NCBI GenBank assembly: GCA_010093815.1
Contig: ML996567.1
Length of the DNA stretch: 64,000 nt
From: Pseudovirgaria hyperparasitica
Taxonomy: Eukaryota
Reading direction: 5' to 3' (one strand)
Every line of letters begins with the position of its first letter. The first letter of the stretch is position 1. A program made the position numbers and the translations under genes. Positions 6,419-57,786 of this stretch are shown here, in pieces. Under the pieces are notes generated by a model. That model was not told the origin of the DNA and made no database searches. It worked only from the letters and a program-made list of their open reading frames with translations.

Positions 6419-6798
6419 GTATTGTGTTGTGGTTTTCGTCTTGCATGACTTGGTGTTAGGGGTGGTTTGGTTGGCTTCCAACGGCGCTCTGCTTTGCGGC
6501 GCACTTGCATGGCTGCAATGGGTTCCCAAAAGCTTTCATTTATCACGGGGCTAGGGAAAGAATTGCACAAGATAATCGAAGCGGTAAGCGAGCGATCCCG
6601 GATTTTCGGTAATTACCATTGTCCGAATTGCTCCTCCAAGAAAAATTCGAAAGTCTTTGAGTAGGTATTGATTACGAGTGATTGGGTTGATCCCACCTCG
6701 CACACACAAACAACATCGGACGCTTATATATAATTATTGAATGCAACCATCAGCGATATTTACAATGTATTTTACAATCGTGCTTGTGACCTAGTGTT

Positions 6799-7464
6799 CT
6801 ACCTAGTCCACTCATGATTCCATCCATTTCGGGGCGGATAATCGGTCTGCGCCCGAGCATACTCAATCGGGAACCCTTTCCCGGGACCCCAGACTCTCTT
6901 CTTCTCCATTGCTATCCTGAAGAGCCGCCCTACTTTCTTGTTCCCGTTAGCATCCGCTTCAGAAACTCGCATGCCATTCTCGTCCGTCAACCGCAACTCC
7001 TCACAGGCCCTCGCCATCGATTGATATTGCCGCTCAAGCTCCTTCTCCCTCTGTGTGTTCGTCTTCGCTTTGAACATCTGCCAGGCGCGATGAATGGTCC
7101 AGTGACGGAGGGCGCGCAGGCGTGAAAATCGGAGCGGTCGGGGGACCCGTGGATGGAAGAGGTGATAGCGTATGTTCGCTGTCCGTTGTTAGCTGTCACT
7201 GTCTCCGTGTCCCGACAGTGTTCTTCCCCCGGGGGGGAACATTGACGTACTGACACGTGGGTCAACCTGTTGTACGGCCCCTTTCCTTGCTGGACGTGGT
7301 GCGCTGGTGGAGAAGCATGACTGTGTCTGTCGCGAGGATTGGATCGCTGTGGTCGTGTTTCGTAGAGGAGATGGTGTTGGCACAGACAGCGATGGTTGTA
7401 TGTGTGGTCTTAGAAGCACGGAAGACACCTGATGGTGCACCGTGGCTAATCTACCGCCTGCCAT
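6799..7464 (-). CDS. MRPL28: Mitochondrial large-subunit ribosomal protein mL40 (MRP-L28 family)
   Basis: Exons 7464-7251 and 7178-6799 (intron GTACGT...CTAAC...CAG). Ser/Thr/Arg-rich presequence, then DPRVTNIRYHLFHPRVPRPLRFSRLRALRHWTIHRAWQMF...LERQYQSMARACEEL...FPIEYARAQTDYPPRNGWNHEWTR. Confidence 0.85.
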
Positions 7465-7788
7465 GACGAGAGCGTGGTTGAGGATAGACGACGTGGTGAT
7501 GCGTGGACAAGACAGCTTGGGGGCGGCCCCGTGAAAAATTACCCCGGAAATATATTTCAATTGAAAACGGAAACGCGCTAGCTTTAACTAGCTCAGCCCT
7601 ATAGACCCTCGTGGACCCAGTGATTTGCTGCTAGGTGAACTCGCGCCCACGCATCATACCGTAGCATCTCAGCTGCCCACCAAGCTCATTTTGTTTATCT
7701 GTTCACGGCACTTTCTCTCTCTCTCTTTCTGTCTCTCCCACCGAACCTCCGCAGAATTATACCTTGACTCCATATTGTGTTTATCAAT

Positions 7789-9703
7789 ATGGCTACTATC
7801 AATGACAAGATCCTTGCAGCCTCTGCGAAGCATCCGCAGCCTGGCAACGTCTTTCAGTACGGTACTGCTGGTGTAAGTTTGAAGTCCACCGACTGAGGTC
7901 AACTTCACTGACGATTTGGTTGACAGTTCCGCATGAAAGCGTAAGAGTCCCTATGGCTACAGCTTCTACCCCCAATTCCACTCTTTCGTTGTCCTGCTCT
8001 GCCCCGCAATCCAATGCTGAACCCCGCAATTAGGGATCTCCTCGACTCTGTGGTGTTTCGTGTCGGCCTTCTTGCGTCGCTCCGCTCGAGGAAATTCGGT
8101 GGCCAGGTGATTGGTGTTATGATCACTGCCAGTCACAACCCACCAGAGGATAATGGCGTGAAGTTGGTCGATCCTTTTGTAAGTCTGCGCGAATTCAGAG
8201 CATCGTTGGATGCCTTAGCTGACCAAGTGTACAGGGCGAGATGCTAGAGGTACGTGAGCTGTCTCTCTCCGATGGAATTCCACTCACAGACTGCAGTCAT
8301 CCTGGGAAGCTTATGCTACGCGTCTCGCGAACGCTAAGACCGACAAAGAGCTTCTTGCAGTCTACAACAAGCTTGAGCAGGATCTTGACCTTGGAACAAA
8401 CAAGACTCCGAAAGTCATTTATGCTAGGGATACGCGTGCATCTGGCTCTCGTCTTGTAGGATGCCTGGTCGATGCTCTTGAAGCAACCGGAACCGAATAT
8501 ACAGACTACAAGCTCCTCACTACCCCTCAGCTGCACTATCTGGTCCGCTGCTCGAACACCAAGGGTACCGAATACGAATATGGTGATATTAGCGAGAAGG
8601 GTTACTACGAGAAGCTAGCAAATGCATTCAAGCTTGCTGTCAAGCACAAAAAGCCTCAGGGTCCTGTCACGGTGGACTGCGCGAATGGTGTTGGTGGACC
8701 AAAGCTCCGAGAGCTGATCAAGTACTTGGACGGCACAATCGATATCCGGGTCGTCAACGACGATGTGTTGAAGCCAGAGAACCTTAATGTTTCGGTAGGA
8801 TCTTACCTCCTTAAGAACCAAAAGATGCTAAACCCAGTGTAGTGCGGTGCAGATTATGTCAAGACAAACCAACGTGCGCCCCCGTCCTCGAAGGCAGGGC
8901 CTCTTGAGCGTTGCGCTTCACTCGATGGCGATGCTGATCGTATCGTATATTACTTCAATGGTGAGAACGACAAGTTCGTTCTATTGGATGGAGACCGTAT
9001 TGCCACTCTCGCAGCGTCCTTCCTCGGCGAGCTTGCCCGTCAGTCGGGTCTTGCTGAATCGCTCAAGATCGGCGTTGTACAGACAGCTTATGCGAACGGC
9101 GCGGCGACCCAGTATGTCACGTCGAACTTGGGGCTCCCTGTGGTTTGCACGGCAACGGGTGTCAAGCACCTGCATCATGCTGCGCTCCAATTTGACGTTG
9201 GTGTGTACTTTGAAGCGAATGGCCACGGTACCGTTGTGTTCTCCCATGACGCATACAAAGCCATCAACAACCATGAACCGCAGTCTCCGGCGCAAGCCAA
9301 CGCACTCGAGACGCTCAAGGCGCTTTCTGACCTCATCAACCAGGCAGTTGGCGATGCACTCTCTGATCTCCTTCTCGTGGAAGTGATTCTCGCGCACAAG
9401 GGCTGGAGTGTTAAGGACTGGGAGGATACGTATGTTGACTTACCGAACCGACTCGTGAAGGTGCACGTCTTGCTTCGCTCTATGTTCGTGACCACGGATT
9501 CAGAGCGCCGTCTACTAGAGCCGGCAGGTCTACAGGCCACTATTGACTCGCTGTGTGGAAAGTACAAGGCTGGAAGGTCGTTTGCTCGTGCCAGTGGAAC
9601 GGAAGACGCTGTGCGAGTGTATGCGGAAGCAGCTACGAGGGGGGAGGCAGATGACCTAGCGCAGAAGGTAGCTAATGCTGTGTCCCGTGCCACACCGGCA
9701 TAG
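7789..9703 (+). CDS. PCM1: Phosphoacetylglucosamine mutase (AGM1/PCM1)
   Basis: Exons 7789-7872, 7927-7940, 8034-8178, 8235-8249, 8297-8794, 8843-9703. Motifs YGTAGFRMKA, catalytic MITASHNP, metal-binding [32 protein letters not shown]. Confidence 0.95.
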
Positions 9704-10456
9704 GTGAGCAGGCAGGCAGGCAGTACAGTACCCAGGTAGGGTGGTGCGTCAGGGCGAAATCATAGGTCTGATGATGGACAGATCAGAAGCCTTCATGGAA
9801 AAAAAAGACATCATGATTGAGTGATGCACACAGACGTAGAGGTAGAACCAAAAAAAACGATCTGGGAACAAATACAGGATATTTGGCCAATCAGAAAATA
9901 GCAACGGACATTTGAGGCTCAAAATGACTTTTTGGGAGATGAAGCTATTTTGAGCGCAGAGATCGGCATGGCAGTCGACATCGGCCCCACTCACTCACGT
10001 ACTAATAAGCGTCCACTTTGAGCCTCAGCCTGGTTTCCTACAAGGCGCGGCTCTTTTTAGCCAGAAGTGATTATGAATATTGTGATGTGAACATGAACTC
10101 TCGTCCATCGTCTCCATCTTATTCTACCCTCCTCCCAAACCTCGTCATCAATCTCCGCTAAGGTAGGTAGTAAGCAGGACAGGCCATTCGTACTTTCTAG
10201 TGAGCCTCGTGCTGCTTGCTGCTCATCAAGTGCTTCCATTAATAATCAAGTGCACACTGCATTCTGTTGTTCTGCATCTGATCCCATCAGGGCATCCCGC
10301 GCATGTCCGTCCGTACTACGACGACGACAAGCAGCCCTGACTGACAACGCAACGACTAATGGAGGACGCGAGGGGTGTCTGGCTTACGTGCTCGTGAACA
10401 GGATTCAGCACCGCATGACTTATGGCGCACTAATTGGCTAGAATGTCGGCCCATGG

Positions 10457-10505
10457 TGACTGACTGACTGACTGACTGACTGACTGACTGACTGACTGAC
10501 TGACT
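10457..10505. repeat. (TGAC)12 microsatellite, followed by a CA/CG-rich tract to about 10573
   Basis: Directly visible tandem repeat. Confidence 0.95.
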
Positions 10506-12504
10506 TGACTGCCCAACAGGACGTGGAACACACACACACGCACACGCACACACGCACACGCACACACGCACACATTCGGACCCCATCCGGCAGTGCTGTT
10601 TCAGGGCGACAGTCGTAATGGGCTGATTCTGCCATCTGGCACGACGAGTCGTCTTCCTTCTTGAGGAGTCGCGCATGCGTGCGTGTGTGTGTGTCAGTGT
10701 CTGTGTGTCTAGCTGCATTCTAGAAGCAGCCACGATCGCGATCGTTTGGGCATGCAGGTCGGGTTGCCAGGTACTGTACTGTACAGTACAGTATGTAGTA
10801 AGTAGGTTCCTTTTAAATGCACCAGCCATCCAACGCGCTGGAAGCAGGCAGGCAGGCAGGCAGGCGAAAGGAGATGAGATGAGATGAGTTTGACAAGATG
10901 CGCGGTGGTGGCCGGCCAGCAGCAGCTTTTTCCCCCCTTCCCTTCTCGTTAAGAGATAAAATAATTAACTGATGGCGACCTGGCTGGCATGCATGCAATG
11001 CATGCATGGCGATGACTCGGCCCATTCATTCCCATTCCCGCATCGAAAGAAAGCGTCATGGCCACCACGCCCGCCCCGACCAAACGGTCGTCGCAGAGGC
11101 TGGGCCCCTGGCGGAACCTGCTGTAATGTTTTGAAGCAGTGGAAACGGCATGTCAGAAGGATGCTGATGGGGCCACAGGATGGTCATTGGGGGCATGCAT
11201 AGTAGTAGTACGAGTGAGTCTTTAAGTAAGGGTCGGTTTCTCTTTTTTTTTTTTTTTCTCTTAAAGTTTGTGTGGGTGGTGGACTTGACATGGCGACAGG
11301 AGTGGGATAGATAGGGATGGGGGAGCAAGCAATAGGTACCCGCCACAGAGACCGGGGCTGGCTGCATCCTAGTAGTATTAACCCTGAAATGAAAAGGCAC
11401 CATTCAGAGGCTGCAGATGCGAAAGAAAGGATCCTGACCACTGGCAGACTAATGCGACAGTGCAGTATATTACGGCGGTCAGTGGCCAGTAGTCAGTGGT
11501 CGGTGGTCAGTGGTGCTGATGCTGATGCTGATGCTGAGAAGTCGATGCTGGTGGAGGGTTGGGAGAGGGGGGTGGTGGTGGTGGTGGTTGTAGTAGTGGG
11601 TGTGTTCAAATAAGAACAGGCGTGTTTTGCGTCTTGCGTCTTTGCGTCTTTGCGTCGTCCTGCACTGGACGTGTGATTAATTATTACTACTACATATTCA
11701 TATTATTCTTATTCTTCTTTTCCTTGATCCTTCTCGTGCCTCTCTGACCTGACCCGGACACACGCACACGCACACGCACGCACACACACTCTCTCTCGTT
11801 TCGCTGCCTTTGCCTGGTCTGTCTGTCTGTCTGGCTGGTCGCATCGCATCGCATCACATCGCATCCTGTCTTGTCCTGCCGGGTTTGGGCTGTCTTGCAC
11901 CCGCCACGACATACCAAAGCAAAGACAAGACAAGCCTGCCTCCCTCCACACTTTGTCCCAGCTGCTCCTCTCACATGCCCTCTCCTCCCACTCGTCTGAG
12001 AAGTGCTGCCCTTGATCCTTTTTTTTCCTTTTCCTTTTCCTTTTCACTCATTCTCTTCTCTTCTAATCGCTCTCTTCTCTTTCTGACCTTCCTTTTTCTG
12101 TTGCTCTCCTCCGATCGCTACCACTCGAATACTCTCTTCACTTTCCTGGAAACTCGTCTCGTCTCGACTCGGACTACTCAACGCCACTGCTTCGGAGCCT
12201 ACCGTCTGTACTATTCTGGCTATATCACTGCTCCTATTGGTCAGCTGTCGCTTCTTTGTTTGCCGAATACGCCTCTATCCTGCCCACCACCTATCAACCA
12301 ACCACCAAACTATCTTACCATATACCAACATTAACCATTATTGCTATCCGAGAGAGAGAGAGAGAGAGAGAACACTTTCTCCATCCTCGATCTCTGTGTC
12401 CGCTCAGACATTCAGGACGCACCTCGCAGAGATCCGAGGCCTTTTATTTATTCACCGGCGCTGTCTTGACACAAACACTCTTGACCAATCAACGACAACG
12501 CACC

Positions 12505-12687
12505 ATGTGTTCTCAAACAAGATATCATTATAGTCCCCAACGGACAAACCGCAAGACCTCTAGGGTGTACAGCACATGTACGAAATGGCTCTGCTGCTTT
12601 TGTAACACGGAGAACTGCACCTCGTCAATCTGGTGCGGCAAGTGCTGGCACTATACTGTGAACTGCATAGACTGCTTCTCGTACTGA
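12505..12687 (+). CDS. Small Cys-rich putative double zinc-ribbon microprotein 1 (60 aa)
   Basis: CACC-ATG context after about 525 nt of ATG-free pyrimidine-rich leader. MCSQTRYHYSPQRTNRKTSRVYSTCTKWLCCFCNTENCTSSIWCGKCWHYTVNCIDCFSY; the motif is shared with two downstream ORFs. Confidence 0.7.
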   Translation: MCSQTRYHYSPQRTNRKTSRVYSTCTKWLCCFCNTENCTSSIWCGKCWHYTVNCIDCFSY

Positions 12688-12993
12688 GCGACGCTGGATG
12701 TCGGCTCTTTACGAGGCTATGGAGCTCTTGACCGCGTGGAAAACGTCTTTTCACAAAGGCGGAGTATAGAGTATTAAAGGAGGCCTCGACCATACGTTCT
12801 ACTTCTTCCTTTCTCAATCCATACTGAGATTTATATACATACACCTTCAAAGCGCGATACCATCCGAACGAGACTTTCGGTGTACGAATCAGCGAAAGAC
12901 ACGCCCCAAAGACACACAACTTCTATACCACACGACTACGCTACTCTTACTTCGCACTCGACACTAGCATTGCGAAGACTGAACCCGGACGCG

Positions 12994-13128
12994 ATGCCCG
13001 TAGGTTCCACGGGATGGGTTTGTTGTCGGTGTGGAGCAGACAACCCCTGTTCTACACTGTGGTGTCATGGTCGGGGCAAGACTTGTCAACACTACACTGT
13101 GAATTGTGTTGGCTGCTTCTCCTACTGA
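12994..13128 (+). CDS. Small Cys-rich putative double zinc-ribbon microprotein 2 (44 aa)
   Basis: MPVGSTGWVCCRCGADNPCSTLWCHGRGKTCQHYTVNCVGCFSY. C-terminal HYTVNCxxCFSY* matches ORF1 with several synonymous differences. The frame is open upstream to 12778 but has no earlier ATG. Confidence 0.7.
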   Translation: MPVGSTGWVCCRCGADNPCSTLWCHGRGKTCQHYTVNCVGCFSY

Positions 13129-13629
13129 TGTTCTCCTGGAACCAGTCCCGGGCAGCGCGCGGGTACGGTGAAGGCTGGTCTCGTCGTAAGAATGGGCACC
13201 CGGAGCAGGTTCCAGCACGTGGTGCGACTGGTACGGAAACCACAACAATGCAAGCGGACATTGGGAGGAACTGTAATGATCTTTTTGTACATTTTAAGGG
13301 AGGTTTTTTGTTTATTCTAGATACCCCCCCCCCAAAGTCTCTTGTCTATCAGCAGAAAGAACAACATAATATTACAACAATAGCATCTTTGCAGAATAGT
13401 GATTCGGTGGTTCGCACTTTCCTAGGACTGAGCTGATTGATCTCTATACGCCTCCAGTTGACGGGTGGACCCCTCATCTTCTCTACTCGTCTTCCACGCA
13501 ATAATTCAGGTCAATCTTTTTTTGGCCTTCCTCTTGTCTTCGGGCTACCGAAGCCTCGCCAACATCCTCTGCGCACAATCATCTATATCCAAATATACTT
13601 ACCTCAGTCACTACACTTTTCACTCCAAA

Positions 13630-13851
13630 ATGACTACCATTCCTCAACTTCACCGGTCTGACGCTGCAAACAACATCCGCAACGCCCGCCCCGACATCGT
13701 CCCAGCGCGCAACCTAGCAGGCAGAGCGGTCAGTTCCCGGGACGGATTCTTCTGCTGTGAATGCGGGGTGCGATTCAGCCTGAGCACGGATTTCTGCTCT
13801 GGGTGCGAGCATTACGTTCGGACTTGTGTGTGGTGTTCGACTTCGAGATGA
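13630..13851 (+). CDS. Small Cys-rich putative double zinc-ribbon microprotein 3 (73 aa)
   Basis: CAAA-ATG context. MTTIPQLHRSDAANNIRNARPDIVPARNLAGRAVSSRDGFFCCECGVRFSLSTDFCSGCEHYVRTCVWCSTSR; same Cys/His spacing as ORF1. Confidence 0.7.
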   Translation: MTTIPQLHRSDAANNIRNARPDIVPARNLAGRAVSSRDGFFCCECGVRFSLSTDFCSGCEHYVRTCVWCSTSR

Positions 13852-14518
13852 AAAGGGACGTCGTAAGTTATGGGAATGGTTGGGGGGGGGGGTTATGTTG
13901 GATTTGGTCGTGCGTTTGTTTGATGGCTGATGTTTGTTTCATAGAAGGCTTGATGGGATTTTTGGGGTTTGACCTGTGGGATGATGTGGGGATGTATGCA
14001 CTTTGTTTCTGCGGTTCGGATGCAGGATGGTTTGGATGTGTGGCTAGGGTTGATGATCAAGTGCTATAGGAAAGAGTGCTGAGGCGGTGTATCTTGCACA
14101 TCAATTAAATGGCATTTGACGTCTGGCTTCAGCGCTCGTAGATCGATTGATACTGAGGGTTTTGGATTCTGAGTTACGGTTTCTGATCTCGTGCTTGTCA
14201 CAGTAGACTTTGAGGAGCTGTATGAAGAACACAAAACTGTATAGCACGTTTGTCAGATGCATGCAGGGTACCTGTGGATCTGCTCATCGAGTTTCAGAAC
14301 AAGATGACGCAGATCTGTAGAATCCCTGACGATCATAAACACGATTCTGTTTTGGGTTAGCCTAGTAGATCGTACTAAGAAGCTTGCCTAGGTAAGCTAA
14401 GCCGCGGGAGTCCAAGCTTCTTCGGCTCTCCTTGACTTTGCATCATCGCCATGTGAGAGAGCTCCGTCGCAACACCAGACCACTCTCACCACTCACTTAC
14501 CATCACCACCTCACAACC

Positions 14519-15937
14519 ATGGAGGACGACTACGAAGACACGCGTAGCGTCCTGCACCTCGCAATGGTTCGTCCACTCCTTCCCCCACTCCCTCCGCCGT
14601 TCCCCAACTAACTCCAACCCCAGGACACCGTCCTCCAGCCCGCCCGCAGCACACTCACAACCCTAACCTCCAAAACCGCCCGCCGAGCCTACCTCACCAC
14701 ACTCCTCATCTTCCTGACCTCGCTCCTCCTGCTCGGCACCGCCGTCGTCGCCTACATCACCTTCTACTACGCCTACGTGCCCCTGCGCGGCTTCTCCACC
14801 CCGATCCACCTCCAATTCGACCCGCTGGCCCAGACCCACCCGCATGCCACCGCCCCGCTCGGCGACGTCCTCGTCGCGCACCAGAAGTACGACGTCAGGC
14901 TCAATCTGCGCATGCCGCGCACGCCTGCCAATCTGCGCGCGGGCAACTTCATGCTCGATGTGCGGTTGCTTGCGCCGGGACTGGCCGGGCCGTTGGATAC
15001 GGTTGTGCGGGCTGCGGCGGCGGCGGTGGCGGGCGACGAGGGCCCGGATGATGTGGTTGTGCGGAGTAGTCGGGCGGCGATTCTGGAGTATCGTAGTTGG
15101 GCGATGGAGGTGCGGGAGAGGGTGGTGTGGGGCTTGTGGTATGTGGCTGGGTGGAGGAGGGAGGAGGAGGAGGTGAGTGTGCGGATGCTGGAGGATGTGG
15201 TGTTTGAGAAGGGCGTGAGGGGCTTGCCGAGATGGGTGCGGGTGGATGTTCGGGGGAGGGAGGTGCTGCAGGTTTATGAGTGTGAGATTGTGTTTCGGGC
15301 GCGGCTGTCTGGGTTGAGGTATGTGGTGCTTTACTCCTGCGCTGACTGATTTTGGTTTTAACTGCTTACGCGGACTAGGTACATCATGTACAACCACCGC
15401 ATCATCTCCTTCATCACCTTCACCTCCCTCTTCTACGCCATCGAACTCACCTCCCTCCTCATCTCATGGGCCCTCCTCTCCCTCCTCTTCCCCTCCTCAT
15501 CCAAGCCAAAACCACCCCCAAAATCCCCAAAGCGCGAAATCAAACCCGACGACGACGACCCAGCCATCAAACTCGAACACGACCACGACCACGACCACGA
15601 CTCAGACTCCGCCGAATCCACCACCCTCTCAACTACATCCCGCTCCTTCCCCACCTACACACGCCAACCACCACTACACTACTCCTCCCCGCCGCCCATC
15701 AAGAAAGAAGAAGACCCCGAAGATTCATCCGGAGATCTCAGCGCTCTGCCCCTTGCTGCCGGCGAAGCAGCCGATGATGAGGATGACGACGACGAGGCGG
15801 ATGATTTCGTGCTGGACGAGGATGAGAATCTGAGGCGGATAGCGGCGGATTCGGGGCTGGGGACGAGTCTGGAGAGTTCGGGTGGTGGTGGTGGTGGGGT
15901 TAGGCGGCGGAGGAGTGGTGGTGGGCTAGGGAGGTGA
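14519..15937 (+). CDS. SEI1: Seipin (lipid-droplet biogenesis protein)
   Basis: Exons 14519-14566, 14624-15318, 15380-15937. Two TM segments (RAYLTTLLIFL...AYITFYYAYVP; MYNHRIISFITFTSLFY) flank a luminal domain with QKYDVRLNLRMPRTPANLRAGNFML and LQVYECEIVFRARLSGLRYIMY. Acidic tail with DSGLGTSLES. Confidence 0.85.
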
Positions 15938-16499
15938 AGGCTGAGCATATTGGTCAAATCGAAAAGCTTTTCTATTTTGCTTTGAATGAAAGGGCAGACG
16001 CAGAACGAGTGATGACATATCCATATATCCATACAGACATACATATTACCCATAGACCCATGCAAGACACACACGGCCATGCACGGAAGACACGGGGAGG
16101 GCAAAGTAAAGAATAAAAGTCTCACAATTTCAAAAGGTATCAATTACCACACTTCCAAGCAAAGCATGCAAAGATAGCAATTATATACATAAAGCATCCA
16201 GCGCACGACGTCTGTTATTAACGGGAATCCAAAGAAGAAAAGAAAAGAAGCCAAGAAAAACGCCCGCTCTCTTTCTTCCCCAATGAGGTAGGTATCTTCG
16301 GTGAAATGAAAACAAAACTAAAAACGGACAAAGGCGAAGACAGTGGCTGTGTCTCTCCCTCTATCCTGACAATAATGGACCGCAGCATGCAGCATGCATG
16401 CAAAACAACCAACCAACCAATCCCAACACCAAGCATCAAGTCAAAAAAAGTCATCACATCATACCAATCACCAACCCCCAACACCCTACTCATCCCCCC

Positions 16500-52161: not shown

Positions 52162-54253
52162 TCACACCTGGCTGAACCTACGCCTACTACTCCTCCCACC
52201 CACCGACGGCGGCGGCGGCGGCACAGGCGCAGTCGGCGGCGAAACAGCAGGCACACTCCTCCGAAACTCAGGCGGCGGCCTCGGAAAGCCCCCCCTACTA
52301 TCCCGATGATCTCGCTCCCTGAACCGCTCCCGCTCCCTTTCCCTCTCACGATCCCTCTCACGGTCCGAAAACACAATATCCTCGTCGTCAATCTCCCACG
52401 TGTCCATGCTGCCGCGTCTCCGACTGACCGCTCTCGGAGGAGGAGGAGGATGGTGCCGCCCCTCAGGCCTCCCGCCATCCACACTGCGAGCCCTCCTCGA
52501 GCCGGCACCAGCCGCAGACGGGCCGACGCTCGTCCGTCTCGAGGACGCGCGGCCCTCGCCGCCTCGTCTGCTGCGCTTCGGCTTCGCGGCGCCCGTGGGC
52601 GCAGGCTTGAGCACGTAGCCAAAGGACTCGGGGTCGCGTCTGGCGAGGTCGCGCTCGAGGCGGAAGAGCGGGCTCTCGGGCAAGTCTCTGTTCTGGCCCT
52701 TTTCGGCGAGCGGGCGCGGGAGGCGGTAGAAGATGTCTGGGTCTGGGCCGGCGGCGTCGTCGTAGTTGATGTGGAGGGACCAGTCTGCGAGGGCGGGGCA
52801 GGTGTAGGTGCTTTTGTCGGCGACGCCGGGGCCGCGGAAGTGGAGGCGGGCGCGCACGCTCGGGTGGATGTATTCGCATGTGTCGGTGAGGAGGCGGTCG
52901 GTGGGCCGGTTGGTGGTTGGGTCGGCGGCGTGGTAGGAGCCTGGGGTGCGTGTTTTGCCGCCGCCGAGGGCGTAGAGGCCGGCCATGGAGTTTGGGATCT
53001 TGCCAAAGGACCAGGGGCGGACGTCTTCGTCGCGGGAGGCATAGTAGCGGTCGTTTGCGTCGTCTTGCTCGAGGACGTAGGCGCTGCGCATGTCGAGGAA
53101 GGGCTCGAGTTGCGACATCATCCACGCCAGCGTGATGTTGGCGAGTTGCTGGTCGTCTTCGCCGCCGCCAATGTTGGAGTGGACGCCAGGAAACCAGACT
53201 TGGCGCAGCTTGGTCTTGTTGCCAGCCGGTTTTTCCCAGATGGCCGGGGCGAATGCACTGCGGCGTTCGTCGAGGGCGAGTGCCTGGAAGGCGTTGTCGA
53301 CGTTGTTCCCGAGCTTGGTGTCGTGGAAGGATGTTTCCTTGGATTGCTGGCTTTGGAGTCCGACTTTTGTGAGCCAGCCGACACGGGGGAGCCCGAGACT
53401 GCCTACTGTGTCCCATACCGCAATTGCTTTGATGCGGACCCCTAAGGTTGTCAGCCCTCGCCGCTCGAGCTCTCGCGCATACGTTGGATCGGCGGCACTT
53501 GGTTTCTTAGGAAAGGGGACATCTGGATATTTTGGGCGATAGTCGGGGTCTCGCCTATTTTTGACGTCTTGGTGGATCTCAGCTAGGCCTGATAGACCCT
53601 TCTTGGTCAAAATGCCTATCACATCCATGAAGCCTGCTATCGAGCGGACAGTAAAGGCACCCCGAGAGAAGCCTATCAGGAAGATCTCGTCGCCAGTTGT
53701 GTAGTTGTTGGCGATGAAAGAGTATGCCTCACGAACATTTTCATCAAGGCCTTCTCCAGTAGTACCTAGATTAGATCAGTGACTAGTCCCTGACAAGAAG
53801 CAGCATTGACAATGGTGTTCTACGAACCTTGTAGAAGTCGCTCTACCACCCCCCCTCTTGATCCGACCCCAAAATGATAGTACACAATCTGCGGTATCCC
53901 GTCCGCGGACACATCTTTGATTGCTCTCGATATCCTCGTGACATTACTCGGAATCGCAAGTTGACCGTTGATGAGGCCATTGTCCGCGTTGAGCCACGTC
54001 CCTGCTCAGTATAAGCATTCACTCTGGCTCACGTGACCATTTGTACCCAATACAACTCACCGTCAGCACAAACAATTAATCTCTTGAACGGCGGCCCAGC
54101 TATTGGCGGTGGTGGTATTGCAGTTCGTGGCCTCGACACCGAACGCGCGCGCACAACCGACGTTGCCCTCGCCAGCTCCTCCGGATCCGTAACCGGTACG
54201 CCATCCCTATAAACATCATAAACCTTGCCGTTAGCCCTGATCTCCGCAGCCAT
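52162..54253 (-). CDS. DUF2235 / Tle1-like alpha/beta-hydrolase (putative phospholipase)
   Basis: Exons 54253-54061, 54001-53828, 53765-52162. KRLIVCADGTW, PSNVTRI, GVG, nucleophile elbow GFSRGA, AVWDTVGSLG, ALALDERR, QVWFPGVHSNIGGG, ITLAWM. Confidence 0.9.
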
Positions 54254-54893: not shown

Positions 54894-57032
54894 CTATCCT
54901 AGCGTGATCTCTTTCCATTGCAACCCTGGCTCCAACGATCCTTTATGGAATGCATCGGTATGTATTCTTGCCAATCCCACTCTCTCGGCCAAGGTCTCTG
55001 GCTGGATCCAACAGATCATCAGCGCGTAGTATGCGATACCGAGAATCCCGGCTTGAGCATCCGATATGGCCAAGAACTCAAAGACTTCGCAATCGTAGTT
55101 CGAATTACTGTCGTTCAAGATGACTTCTCCACACCATTGACCCGAGCGATCCAGCAGACTACGCTTGTATACCCCTGGGGCTACGTTGAACGCAACCTGC
55201 GCTAGGCTATTCCAATAAGGACCAGACTCCCGCGAGCCCAACCCCGGCGAAAGACTGAAATGAGCACTCCAGGTGCAAAAGTTTAGACAGCCCTCTATTG
55301 GATCGTGTGTTGGATAGTTGGGAAAGTCTTCGTTATTCAATTGCCATTCTCGTCGCAAGGTCCGGCCAAAGAAGTCGACATTGTCGACGTTCGTTTGTCG
55401 ATATCCATACCACTTGATCGTACCGTCAACCTCGTCTTGACTAACACCACCCTCACTTGATCCCTCACCGGTTGACAACACAAGATCATGTGATGAGTCT
55501 GCTCCAATCCACCAGATAACCCATGTGTTTTGTGCCAGCCATTGGTGTAAATCACTGCGAGGCTGGAAGGTCGTCCCAGGATTCCACCACGAGGCGCCAC
55601 TCCACCCACACCAAGACCAGCTTGGGAGTATGCTACCTGCGCGCTCTTCCAACGGGAGCCGCCGTGAGAGCCCCTTCGGTTCCCAAAGTAGAGACCAGTC
55701 GAAATGAGACTTGGGCAGTCCATAGCAAAAGATCAATCCGCTCTTTCTAGAATCCGCGGCATTTGATAGTGCACCGAGAACTCCTTCAAAAGCTAAAAGT
55801 CTGTCCCGGGAGAATGCCAACTCTCTATGACTATAAATCTCCACGTGTTTTGACAGTCGGTCTATTGGATTCTGTTGCGGAGTACAGAGCGAGGACGGTG
55901 AGCCCATTGTAGACAAAGCCTGGATTTCATCTGCAGAGAGCCGTGATCCAACCTTCTTTCTGCTACGTCCGCATTCGTAGAACACGTCTTCGTCTACAAA
56001 GACTAAGGCTCTGGTAGACAAGACCTTCTCTTGGAATGTCCATCCGCGGTGATTCCAGCGAGAGGAGATTATCTGGTCTCTTAGTGTCTTCATGACACCC
56101 AGTCTTAATGGGCCATACGAACCAGAGGTTCGAATGAATGCTCGTGACATAGAATCGGGTCCGAAGATACCGGCATTCGCATAGTCGCTACTCGCCGCGC
56201 AAATAGTCAAAACAGCTTGTCCGTAGACGGTGTCCATGAATGGAGCAGTCTTGTGGAAATCCTCTAGACTATCCTGAAGGATGCACAGAGAATCTACCCA
56301 TAGATACTGCACTCCCAGTCGAAAGGCTATATCAACTGCGTCTCGGACCGTTTTGGGTAAGGTTTGGTGATCATCCAGGAATGCTCCCGGTTGTTCTAGA
56401 GCAGCCAAATTCTGTTTCGTCAACACCAACGGTGCTGGCTGCGAACCGTTGCTACCCCATACGTAACTCAAGGCGCAATACTTCAATGGAGTCTGCTTTT
56501 CTACAAGGCAACGTAACTCCGTGTCGATCACACGAAGTTTAGGCAAGGATCGATCCCGCGTACAGTACATCTGGCAGCTTTTATCGTGGCTATGCTCACA
56601 TTCTCGTATCCATGAGCGAACCTCATCGAGATCGACTGAGGCAGAAGCTTGAGTACGGCTTGGGTTATGATCATTAAGCAATGCTATGTAAGCTGGTGTG
56701 AAGATAGACTCATCGCTGAAAATTCGAAGCCTTCGGTTCCGATCAAGTTGAGATTTCTGTGGCCAGTCCATAAAGCAATTCACTCGATCGCCTTGTACAT
56801 CGAACCCATCAAACACGATTTCCTCGTTTTGAGGGGTGTAGATCGCATCGCAGAGCAGGTCACAAAAGGTACAGTCATGTCTTCTCTTGAACAAGTCGTC
56901 TAGATAGCCAATTCTGACTGCGTGTCCTTCTGTGTTATTGGAAGGAATCGAGCTGTGCGAATAGAATTTAGCCGGGCTAATATCGAGGGCTCGACATGTA
57001 GAACAAAGACGTGCTAATGCGGAATCTCCCAT
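54894..57032 (-). CDS. HET-domain (heterokaryon incompatibility) protein
   Basis: Intronless; first ATG 57032. WIRECEHSH, LRVIDT, YCALSYVWG, LPKTVRDA...YLWVDSLCILQD, MDTVYGQAVLTICAAS, WNHRGWTFQEKVLS, FDWSLLW, PSWSWCGW. Confidence 0.92.
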   Translation of the reverse strand: MGDSALARLCSTCRALDISPAKFYSHSSIPSNNTEGHAVRIGYLDDLFKRRHDCTFCDLLCDAIYTPQNEEIVFDGFDVQGDRVNCFMDWPQKSQLDRNRRLRIFSDESIFTPAYIALLNDHNPSRTQASASVDLDEVRSWIRECEHSHDKSCQMYCTRDRSLPKLRVIDTELRCLVEKQTPLKYCALSYVWGSNGSQPAPLVLTKQNLAALEQPGAFLDDHQTLPKTVRDAVDIAFRLGVQYLWVDSLCILQDSLEDFHKTAPFMDTVYGQAVLTICAASSDYANAGIFGPDSMSRAFIRTSGSYGPLRLGVMKTLRDQIISSRWNHRGWTFQEKVLSTRALVFVDEDVFYECGRSRKKVGSRLSADEIQALSTMGSPSSLCTPQQNPIDRLSKHVEIYSHRELAFSRDRLLAFEGVLGALSNAADSRKSGLIFCYGLPKSHFDWSLLWEPKGLSRRLPLEERAGSILPSWSWCGWSGASWWNPGTTFQPRSDLHQWLAQNTWVIWWIGADSSHDLVLSTGEGSSEGGVSQDEVDGTIKWYGYRQTNVDNVDFFGRTLRREWQLNNEDFPNYPTHDPIEGCLNFCTWSAHFSLSPGLGSRESGPYWNSLAQVAFNVAPGVYKRSLLDRSGQWCGEVILNDSNSNYDCEVFEFLAISDAQAGILGIAYYALMICWIQPETLAERVGLARIHTDAFHKGSLEPGLQWKEITLG

Positions 57033-57786
57033 GAAAGCGATACGACCAGAATTATTTACGAGTGATAGGGACAGAACGAGAGGTAATACACCTGTGGAAG
57101 AGAGTAATGTTATAATATACTTAATTATTGGCGTTGAGTAGCGGCTGAAAACAGGAAGGTGGGGTGACCTGTTCTGGAGTCTGGACACGCTGTTGGAGGC
57201 TCACACTATTACACTCAACGAGGCTGAGACATGACTGACCCGTAGAATTGCATTGGAGACGTCAGTTGGGCCATTATCCTTAGTGATCGGGACGCTGACA
57301 ACACATAGGATCTTGAGGCACACAGATGCAATATCTGCAAAAGATTTCGTCCGCCATGATATGTGGCTCACTTGCAGCGTTTATATATCGAACACCAGAT
57401 TCTCCAGCACCTTAGACTGAGACTTTAGCCCGTGAACGCCAAAACTTCTTCGTGCAGACTAGCCAGTTGAACCCAACTGTGGCGTAGACTCGGTATCCAG
57501 TACACCTCATGGAATATGTCCACCCAAATATGCAAGGTAAATAACTTTACCAGCCCGATCTTTTGGTGCAACCTTACGACGGGTCTCCGTCATATCCTAC
57601 GTAAGTTGTAAATATTATGTATATATATAAGCCTCGTTGCAAGCAACTCGCCCAAGACGTTGTCAATGACATACGACAAAGAAGACCGCTCCAATGGTCC
57701 ACATTATATTGCAGAGAGCGACACTGGGGACATAGAATTACAGATCGAAAACGTATAATATTGAGCTGTATCGCAAGGGAAAGATA

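Follow-up and report, generated by a model that had tools for sequence, protein, structure and literature searches.

Single-domain zinc-finger microproteins have been described in plants and in archaea. In plants, the B-box microProteins miP1a and miP1b are reported to act by binding a larger protein (PMC4807768), and two further reports describe one-domain zinc-finger micro-proteins of Haloferax volcanii that are shorter than 70 amino acids (aa), often unannotated and associated with regulatory or stress phenotypes (PMC6562870, PMC11241148). Here we analysed a stretch of 64,000 nucleotides (nt) from Pseudovirgaria hyperparasitica (contig ML996567.1; the whole stretch is called the window), which carries an array of three short open reading frames (ORF1 to ORF3). 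On the evidence of their sequences, these ORFs are real and belong to a rare family of fungal microproteins for which there is no database entry. Like the H. volcanii C(P)XCG proteins, the family members consist of little more than a zinc finger and are often unannotated; the H. volcanii proteins, in contrast, are archaeal, carry another motif with four ligands and one zinc ion, and showed no sequence relation to the family in our searches. The proposed parallel with miP1a and miP1b is one of function, namely that of a zinc-finger microprotein with a single domain. Classical microProtein logic, in which the small protein is a paralogue or decoy of a multidomain protein, found no support: no larger fungal protein with the module was found, and a search of longer proteins yielded nothing but sequences of 81-200 aa whose tails are unrelated. 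Our best explanation overall, to which we give somewhat better than an even chance, is that the array comprises three real, anciently duplicated genes for a zinc-stabilised binding module. The three ORFs are:

12505..12687, + strand: ORF1 (60 aa); basic, unconserved N-terminal tail (residues 1-27) followed by the module (residues 28-60, DNA 12586-12684); ends C-F-S-Y-stop; start CACCATG
12994..13128, + strand: ORF2 (44 aa); nearly the module alone (DNA 13015-13125), with an insert of 4 residues that separates the last two conserved Cys of the ribbon half; ends C-F-S-Y-stop
13630..13851, + strand: ORF3 (73 aa); most diverged, with all eight putative ligand positions kept and the family's W, N, T and F lost; module at DNA 13747-13836; start CAAAATG

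The ORFs are separated by gaps of 306 nt (ORF1 to ORF2) and 501 nt (ORF2 to ORF3). In a six-frame scan of the window, the search motif [WFY]-x-CC-x-C-x(8-14)-C-x(2-7)-C-x-H-Y-x3-C-x2-C matched three times, at ORF1, ORF2 and ORF3, and it did not match once in 100 second-order Markov shuffles of the window. A family hidden Markov model (HMM) scored 56.0, 58.3 and 49.7 bits for ORF1, ORF2 and ORF3, respectively, and 10.6 bits for the next-best stretch of the window; degenerate extra copies sought with this model in the window and in the metagenome loci described below were not found. An earlier note on this DNA, made from the sequence alone, had given the positions and lengths of the three ORFs exactly and had described their shared core correctly.

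When 1.84 billion representative proteins were searched exhaustively with HMMER, a profile built from the three cores returned 20 hits at E <= 0.001, and 12 of these contain the whole core. In the other eight the match extends over no more than roughly half of the profile, at positions of about 3-32 (18-36 in P0010): five (P0002, P0006, P0007, P0013 and P0018) are repeat proteins of generic prokaryotic zinc ribbons, two (P0001 and P0011) have no Pfam matches other than scattered ones or ones below threshold, and P0010 is an unrelated repeat protein. A word-based search with a 15-row alignment added two members, which brings the predicted proteins to 14 in total. Of all members only one of these two carries a name, being listed as a 'hypothetical protein' in a metagenome-assembled genome of the lichen-forming fungus Pyrenula ochraceoflavens; the word-based protein search with ORF1 alone gave nothing. 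Moreover, a pattern scan of JGI metagenome contigs gave eight matches, seven of which are relatives (L001-L007) on eukaryote-like contigs with genes for CSN7, RGS, a kinase and PIG-Y. The same scan of viral contigs gave a single match (L008), which was rejected as a false, partial one, having only H-Y-T-V-G-C-V-D-C and lacking the CC-x-C half. No relative was found by a pattern scan of one genome each of 185,579 prokaryote species, and the ESM Atlas gave no usable hit (for ORF3 at best 0.89 to unnamed clusters, for the ORF1 core none among named clusters). Furthermore, no Pfam model reaches its cut-off for ORF1, ORF2 or ORF3. As judged from these searches, the family is so far seen only in a few fungal and metagenome sequences. 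The expectation that gene finders would miss such genes largely held, with 14 predictions among the billions of proteins searched, no informative name among the 14, and all of the ten whose clusters were looked up being singletons, from JGI, ENA or Logan. The statement that no function has been characterised also stands, and full-text word searches, in which the motif itself was not among the words, gave no description of the family in the literature.

The conserved part of these proteins is a module of about 33 residues, W-x-C-C-x-C-x3-N-x6-C-x2-C-x-H-Y-T-[VI]-N-C-x-D-C-F-[ST]-Y, which we numbered as in the ORF1 core. It was defined in an alignment of 20 distinct sequences, from which P0021 (nearly identical to P0016) and L003, L005 and L006 (cores identical to L002 or L004) were omitted. 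C11, C14, C25, C28, H30, C35 and C38 are found in all 20 rows. C12 is a Cys in 19 rows and a His in P0017 (W-S-C-H-E-C), an exchange of the kind expected at a metal ligand. W9, N18, T32 and F39 are each present in 19 rows, Y31 and Y41 are further conserved aromatic positions, and ORF3, which keeps the eight putative ligands and lacks W9, N18, T32 and F39, is the outlier of the whole family. Outside the module there is no conservation among members: the tails are basic in ORF1, acidic in P0012 and L001, Lys/Ser-rich in L007 and nearly absent in ORF2 and P0005, and in the lineage of L002-L006 the module lies at the extreme N-terminus and is followed by a 32-residue extension. The eight Cys/His positions of a general two-zinc, eight-ligand finger are thus all present, and the proposal of the earlier note that seven Cys and one His fit two zinc ions agrees with their conservation and with the swap in one relative. 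This count refers to the conserved positions only, as ORF1 has three additional Cys outside the set. The module quite probably binds two Zn2+ ions through these eight residues, and it is inferred to be the only folded part of the protein.

The three ORFs are paralogous and their peptide is under selection, as indicated by the comparison of codons within the module. Between ORF1 and ORF2, the proportion of synonymous differences (pS) is 0.88 over 33 aligned codons, which is saturated, while that of non-synonymous differences (pN) is 0.28. Other pairs without ORF3 or L007 have pS values of 0.82-1.06 and pN values of 0.26-0.38, with the exception of the close pair L002/L004 (pS 0.12, pN 0.04), whose ratio of non-synonymous to synonymous substitution rates (dN/dS) of 0.30 is based on only five differences; for pairs with ORF3, pN reaches 0.47-0.55. 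Although the synonymous rate (dS) is not computable at saturation, saturated pS against low pN indicates that the peptide, and not the DNA, is conserved. At the DNA level, the sole similarity within 11600-14100 is a 39-nt stretch at the 3' ends of ORF1 and ORF2 (82%), with four synonymous differences (TAT/TAC, AAC/AAT, TGC/TGT, TCG/TCC) and two non-synonymous ones (I/V, D/G). The earlier note had named the four synonymous differences and not the other two; its statement that the flanking DNA is dissimilar agrees with this comparison, and its reading that paralogous peptides are under selection is supported by the saturated pS, the low pN and the invariant putative ligands. Moreover, core identity to a foreign protein exceeds that between ORF1 and ORF2 (ORF1 to P0004, 70%; ORF2 to P0005, 79%). 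Each of these paralogues is nearer to a foreign protein than to its neighbour, and the duplications are therefore old, with each copy kept.

The array is flanked by genes for a phosphoacetylglucosamine mutase (AGM1 domains, about 7745-10090, + strand) and seipin (14623-16119, + strand), with NST1, a Ras-family GTPase and NDC80 farther away. Conservation of this arrangement, which the earlier note had suggested as a test, was not seen among the relatives: each of the seven metagenome loci has a single family copy within 10 kb on either side (less at contig ends), and the proteins of eight neighbouring genes of the window, used as tblastn queries, had no match in L001-L007. As the relatives occur singly and without AGM1 or seipin nearby, both the array and its position between these two genes seem to be particular to this lineage. 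We also observed metal transporter genes in some of the metagenome loci, which may be due to chance. L001 carries a heavy-metal P-type ATPase with four HMA domains (1-2748, - strand) about 7 kb from the family member, and L002 and near-identical loci carry a Cation_efflux (CDF) gene (6587-7663, - strand, in L002) about 2.4 kb from the member.

Several described zinc fingers resemble parts of the module. RanBP2/NZF fingers (PF00641; found in HOIP, TAB2, Npl4 and Nup153) share the first-half spacing W-x-C-x2-C-x3-N-x6-C-x2-C. Their PROSITE motif, W-x-C-x(2,4)-C-x3-N-x6-C-x2-C, fits ORF1 and 17 of the 20 alignment rows; in the last knuckle ORF2 has x6 and P0004 x4, and ORF3 has F for W and N. Against PDB sequences, the family profile gave weak single-stretch matches to the NZF fingers of HOIP and TAB2 (E 0.0045-0.06) as well as to Rpb12 and eL40 (E within 0.0045-0.05), over profile positions 4-29. 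Pfam scans were run member by member for 15 members with a reporting limit of E <= 10, and here the PF00641 model remained below its cut-off of 27 bits, with L007 (17.0), P0012 (15.4) and L001 (13.6) matching best, at positions 3-25 of 30, and ORF1, ORF2 and ORF3 not matching. The family differs from RanBP2/NZF fingers by inserts in the second knuckle (ORF2 and P0004), by four extra invariant putative ligands together with the conserved tail H-Y-T-[VI]-N-C-x-D-C-F, by a module that stands alone rather than within a large protein, and by the absence of the dipeptide T-F, with which NZF fingers contact ubiquitin.

A second likeness is to the ZZ finger (PF25299, ZZ_ADA2), with which the family shares three successive Cys pairs and an aromatic residue before the second and after the third pair. 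Five of the 15 members match this model at profile positions 1-31 of 48, all below the cut-off of 27.5 bits (best whole protein P0008 with 15.8 bits; best trimmed core E 0.0035), and ORF1, ORF2 and ORF3 do not match. ZZ fingers carry a final His/Cys ligand pair in their last third, downstream of the third Cys pair. In contrast, the last third of the profile is unmatched in the family, and many members stop three residues past the third pair, as do ORF1 and ORF2 (ORF3 after four), and no fourth pair follows in the three ORFs; what the family has instead is a further Cys, in the CC pair, and a His, in C-x-H. Similarly, three of the 15 members match positions 1-27 of 39 of the ANCHR-like B-box (PF22586; best E 3.7e-4), where the best protein, P0015, reaches 19.5 bits against a cut-off of 27. 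In their layout, the three Cys pairs resemble a ZZ or B-box finger without its last third; the additional Cys and the His seem to take the place of the ligand pair that lies downstream in those fingers.

The earlier note had also called the three proteins a putative 'double zinc ribbon'. Membership in the Pfam family of that name (DZR, PF12773) is not supported: three of the 15 members match the model (best E 0.051), and among the three ORFs only ORF3 does, with 12.4 bits (E 0.19) against a cut-off of 27.3 bits. Prokaryotic zinc ribbons of this kind (DZR and Zn_Ribbon_1, PF13240) account for five of the eight partial hits described above, at positions of about 4-30, and differ from the family in lacking both the CC pair and the C-x-H-Y...C-x2-C-F tail.

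Structure prediction weighs against a confident assignment of the fold. AlphaFold2 gave one middling model with short beta-hairpins and a predicted local distance difference test score (pLDDT) of 74.2, with 50.5-59.9 for the other four models, and the ORF2 model was poor (57.9). A Foldseek search of the PDB gave no match at E <= 0.001 (97 at E <= 10), its top rows being PHD, B-box, FYVE and RING fingers and eL40 at template modelling (TM) scores of 0.26-0.49, and VIA-align found nothing above Z 2.1 among 48,161 chains. These weak models and missing matches thus support no particular fold or pairing of the ligands. A complex prediction of the ORF1 core with ORF2 and four Zn, run without controls, gave a score of 0.02 and a mark of 0.34, which is evidence neither for nor against an interaction.

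We propose that the products would be intracellular microproteins in which a single folded element, held by two zinc ions, offers a surface to which a partner, either protein or nucleic acid, can bind; added specificity, or the recruitment of further factors, would come from the variable tails. By analogy with known single-domain microproteins, a role as a small binding adaptor or competitor is a tentative suggestion with a little less than an even chance. The main functional rival is that the proteins handle metal, as a buffer, store or chaperone for zinc or copper. Eight putative ligands in about 33 residues, three gene copies, and a metal transporter nearby in two of four distinct metagenome contexts (the P-type ATPase in L001 and the CDF gene in L002) would suit such a function. 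However, metallothioneins are Cys-rich, without aromatic residues and without a fixed fold, and the conservation of non-ligand positions in the family, including the aromatic W9, Y31, F39 and Y41, points to a fixed fold instead. Moreover, the transporters are non-adjacent and unlike each other in kind, the array of the window has no metal gene nearby, no metallothionein family is among the Pfam matches at E <= 10, and no motif resembling a zinc-responsive element (ZRE) is present in 11600-13630, the last being a weak test. We therefore regard metal handling as improbable.

It is far less probable still that the C-terminal C-F-S-Y acts as a CaaX-like box and that the products are prenylated, in the manner of lipopeptide pheromones. 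The last Cys is indeed fourth from the end in ORF1, ORF2 and eight further members (10 of 21 distinct sequences), but ORF3 and ten other members continue past this point with the Cys still invariant and part of the C-x2-C pair. Tyr is not a usual X residue in CaaX boxes, and the 33-residue module is unlike known pheromone precursors. Another view, that the three frames arose by chance or are decaying, within either a non-coding RNA or an intergenic spacer, is close to refuted. The ORFs are short, unannotated, modestly expressed and without a Pfam family, as chance frames would be; the motif, however, is absent from the 100 shuffles, 18 more distinct sequences of other origin conserve the core although their synonymous sites are saturated, and each of the three frames runs uninterrupted from an ATG with a favourable context to a stop that directly follows the module. 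Two other kinds of product were considered and rejected. A secreted disulfide-rich effector is rejected because of the lack of a signal peptide, as noted earlier and borne out by the absence of a hydrophobic N-terminal stretch in ORF1, ORF2 and ORF3. For a precursor of a ribosomally synthesised and post-translationally modified peptide (RiPP), the conserved Cys/His module next to an otherwise variable protein would be the reverse of the leader/core logic.

Four sequencing runs cover the stretch and bear on how the array is transcribed. X1 and X2 are DNA-like; X3 and X4, two runs of unrecorded kind on a single sample from a single study, were treated as RNA-like because their contigs skip GT..AG introns in the AGM1 and seipin genes, which those of X1 and X2 do not. 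A single unspliced contig of 2.2-2.3 kb spans all three ORFs in both X3 and X4, and the array region is transcribed without introns. A contig gives no strand, true ends, local depth or molecule number, and overlapping or read-through transcripts assemble together. Furthermore, the cover of X3 and X4 is thin or absent at 10172-11507 and 14180-14513 and thus unusable for setting transcript ends. The relevant features are listed here, with the gaps ranked among 2216 ATG-to-ATG gaps on both strands of the window:

11653..13976, no strand assigned: RNA-like unspliced cover (X3 11660-13894, X4 11653-13976); one contig per run, with 0 other letters and 0 gaps
11978..12504, + strand: ATG-free, pyrimidine-rich stretch upstream of ORF1, presumed promoter/5' untranslated region (UTR); gap 530 nt, with 6 of 2216 gaps at least 529 nt (top 0.3%); GC skew to -0.59
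12722..12993, + strand: ATG-free stretch upstream of ORF2, presumed promoter/5' UTR; gap 275 nt, with 47 of 2216 at least 272 nt (top 2.1%); GC skew -0.35; TATATA at 12832
13279..13629, + strand: ATG-free stretch upstream of ORF3, presumed promoter/5' UTR; gap 354 nt, with 25 of 2216 at least 351 nt (top 1.1%); GC skew -0.47

Each of the ATG-free gaps runs right up to the start codon of its ORF, all three ORFs have a purine at -3 (A in ORF1, G in ORF2, A in ORF3), and three separate C-rich minima of the GC skew lie one just upstream of each ORF. The ATGs between the ORFs are all within 150 nt past the preceding stop, where a 3' UTR would be. Pyrimidine-rich tracts upstream of start sites are usual in filamentous-fungal promoters. 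Because of the ATG-free leaders, the purines at -3 and the C-rich stretch before each ORF, we favour three separate short mRNAs, each probably with a C/T-rich promoter region of its own. The observed pattern would arise from three monocistronic genes with abutting or read-through transcripts. Other observations speak against separate mRNAs: the RNA-like cover comes from the single sample mentioned above, in contigs without strand, ends or local depth; the contig starts about 850 nt upstream of ORF1 and passes the ATG at 11975, which does not suit a short ORF1 mRNA; and one contig across three ORFs is also expected from a single long transcript.

Such a transcript was suggested in the earlier note, in the form of a possible polycistronic unit. 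The same proteins would then be made from one RNA of 2.3 kb, with ORF2 and ORF3 translated by re-initiation after short upstream ORFs. Short ORFs favour re-initiation, and those of the array have only 44-73 codons; the one unspliced contig over all three ORFs in X3 and X4 would fit, and a ribosome not yet recharged could pass over the ATGs just past each stop. There is also precedent: bicistronic expression based on re-initiation has been demonstrated in yeasts and filamentous fungi (PMC10352335), and polycistronic transcripts are reported to be widespread in mushroom-forming fungi (PMC4503453). On the other hand, the contig cannot prove one molecule, four ATGs including that of a 102-codon ORF lie within 150 nt past the ORF2 stop, and every ORF is preceded by an ATG-free, C-rich stretch of its own, with a purine at -3. 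Moreover, the relatives are single, so that co-transcription is no family trait. The part of the suggestion that stood is therefore the common RNA-like contig; the leaders, the -3 purines and the C-rich stretches favour three mRNAs, and the polycistronic idea, which we consider rather unlikely, is more likely wrong than right. A still bolder combination would be a new two-zinc fold, in which a RanBP2-like ribbon is closed by a second site of CC, C-x-H and C-x2-C, used in fungus-restricted stand-alone regulators, with three paralogues co-expressed from a multi-ORF RNA by re-initiation. This we see as a long shot; if true, it would reveal a small operon-like unit of short ORFs in a filamentous ascomycete and a new class of microprotein regulators.

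Some additional observations concern the region around the array. The ATG at 11975 is the sole one between 11600 and the ORF1 start, and it opens a low-complexity, Leu/Ser/Phe-rich frame of 119 codons (11975-12334, + strand) in the RNA-covered stretch. This frame is probably not a gene; with an ORF1 transcript that does begin near 11653, it would count as an upstream ORF. ORF3 is bracketed by a C10 run (13323-13336) and a G10 run (13880-13893), which form a 14-nt inverted pair with 93% complementarity, 543 nt apart; the X3 contig ends at 13894, directly after the G10 run, which could reflect a homopolymer assembly break or a structural element. Between AGM1 and the array lie a 202-codon open frame without a Pfam family (10356-10964, - strand) and a palindromic or repetitive stretch (10451-10711), at which the DNA contigs break and the mir-3149 model matches both strands with 35 bits against a cut-off of 100. 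An Rfam scan of 10000-14700 gave only this sub-cut-off match. The AGM1 gene has two apparent micro-exons of 14 nt (7927-7940) and 12 nt (8236-8247), whose letters are present in the RNA-like contigs at the joints 7872/8034 and 8179/8295; in the window, either string is found a single time, within the part that is skipped. The remaining genes of the window are of ordinary Pezizomycotina type (Fungal_trans, HET, Med17, ISN1 and others). Among them, a protein with a catalytic domain like that of the type VI secretion system (T6SS) phospholipase Tle1 (E 3e-66) adjoins a HET-domain protein (52162-53775 and 54894-57200, both on the - strand).

Overall, what would be new here is a family within the familiar class of small Cys/His zinc fingers. 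Its eight-ligand module matches no curated zinc-finger family, so that solving its structure would probably extend the ribbon and cross-brace fingers by a new variant. Fungal annotations routinely leave out small ORFs, and the family represents a conserved, selected and transcribed case that is almost invisible in protein databases; the only named source among the relatives so far is a lichen-forming fungus. The three-gene array offers a compact test case for the expression of adjacent small ORFs in ascomycetes, by separate mRNAs or by re-initiation, as well as for the role of stand-alone zinc fingers in fungi.

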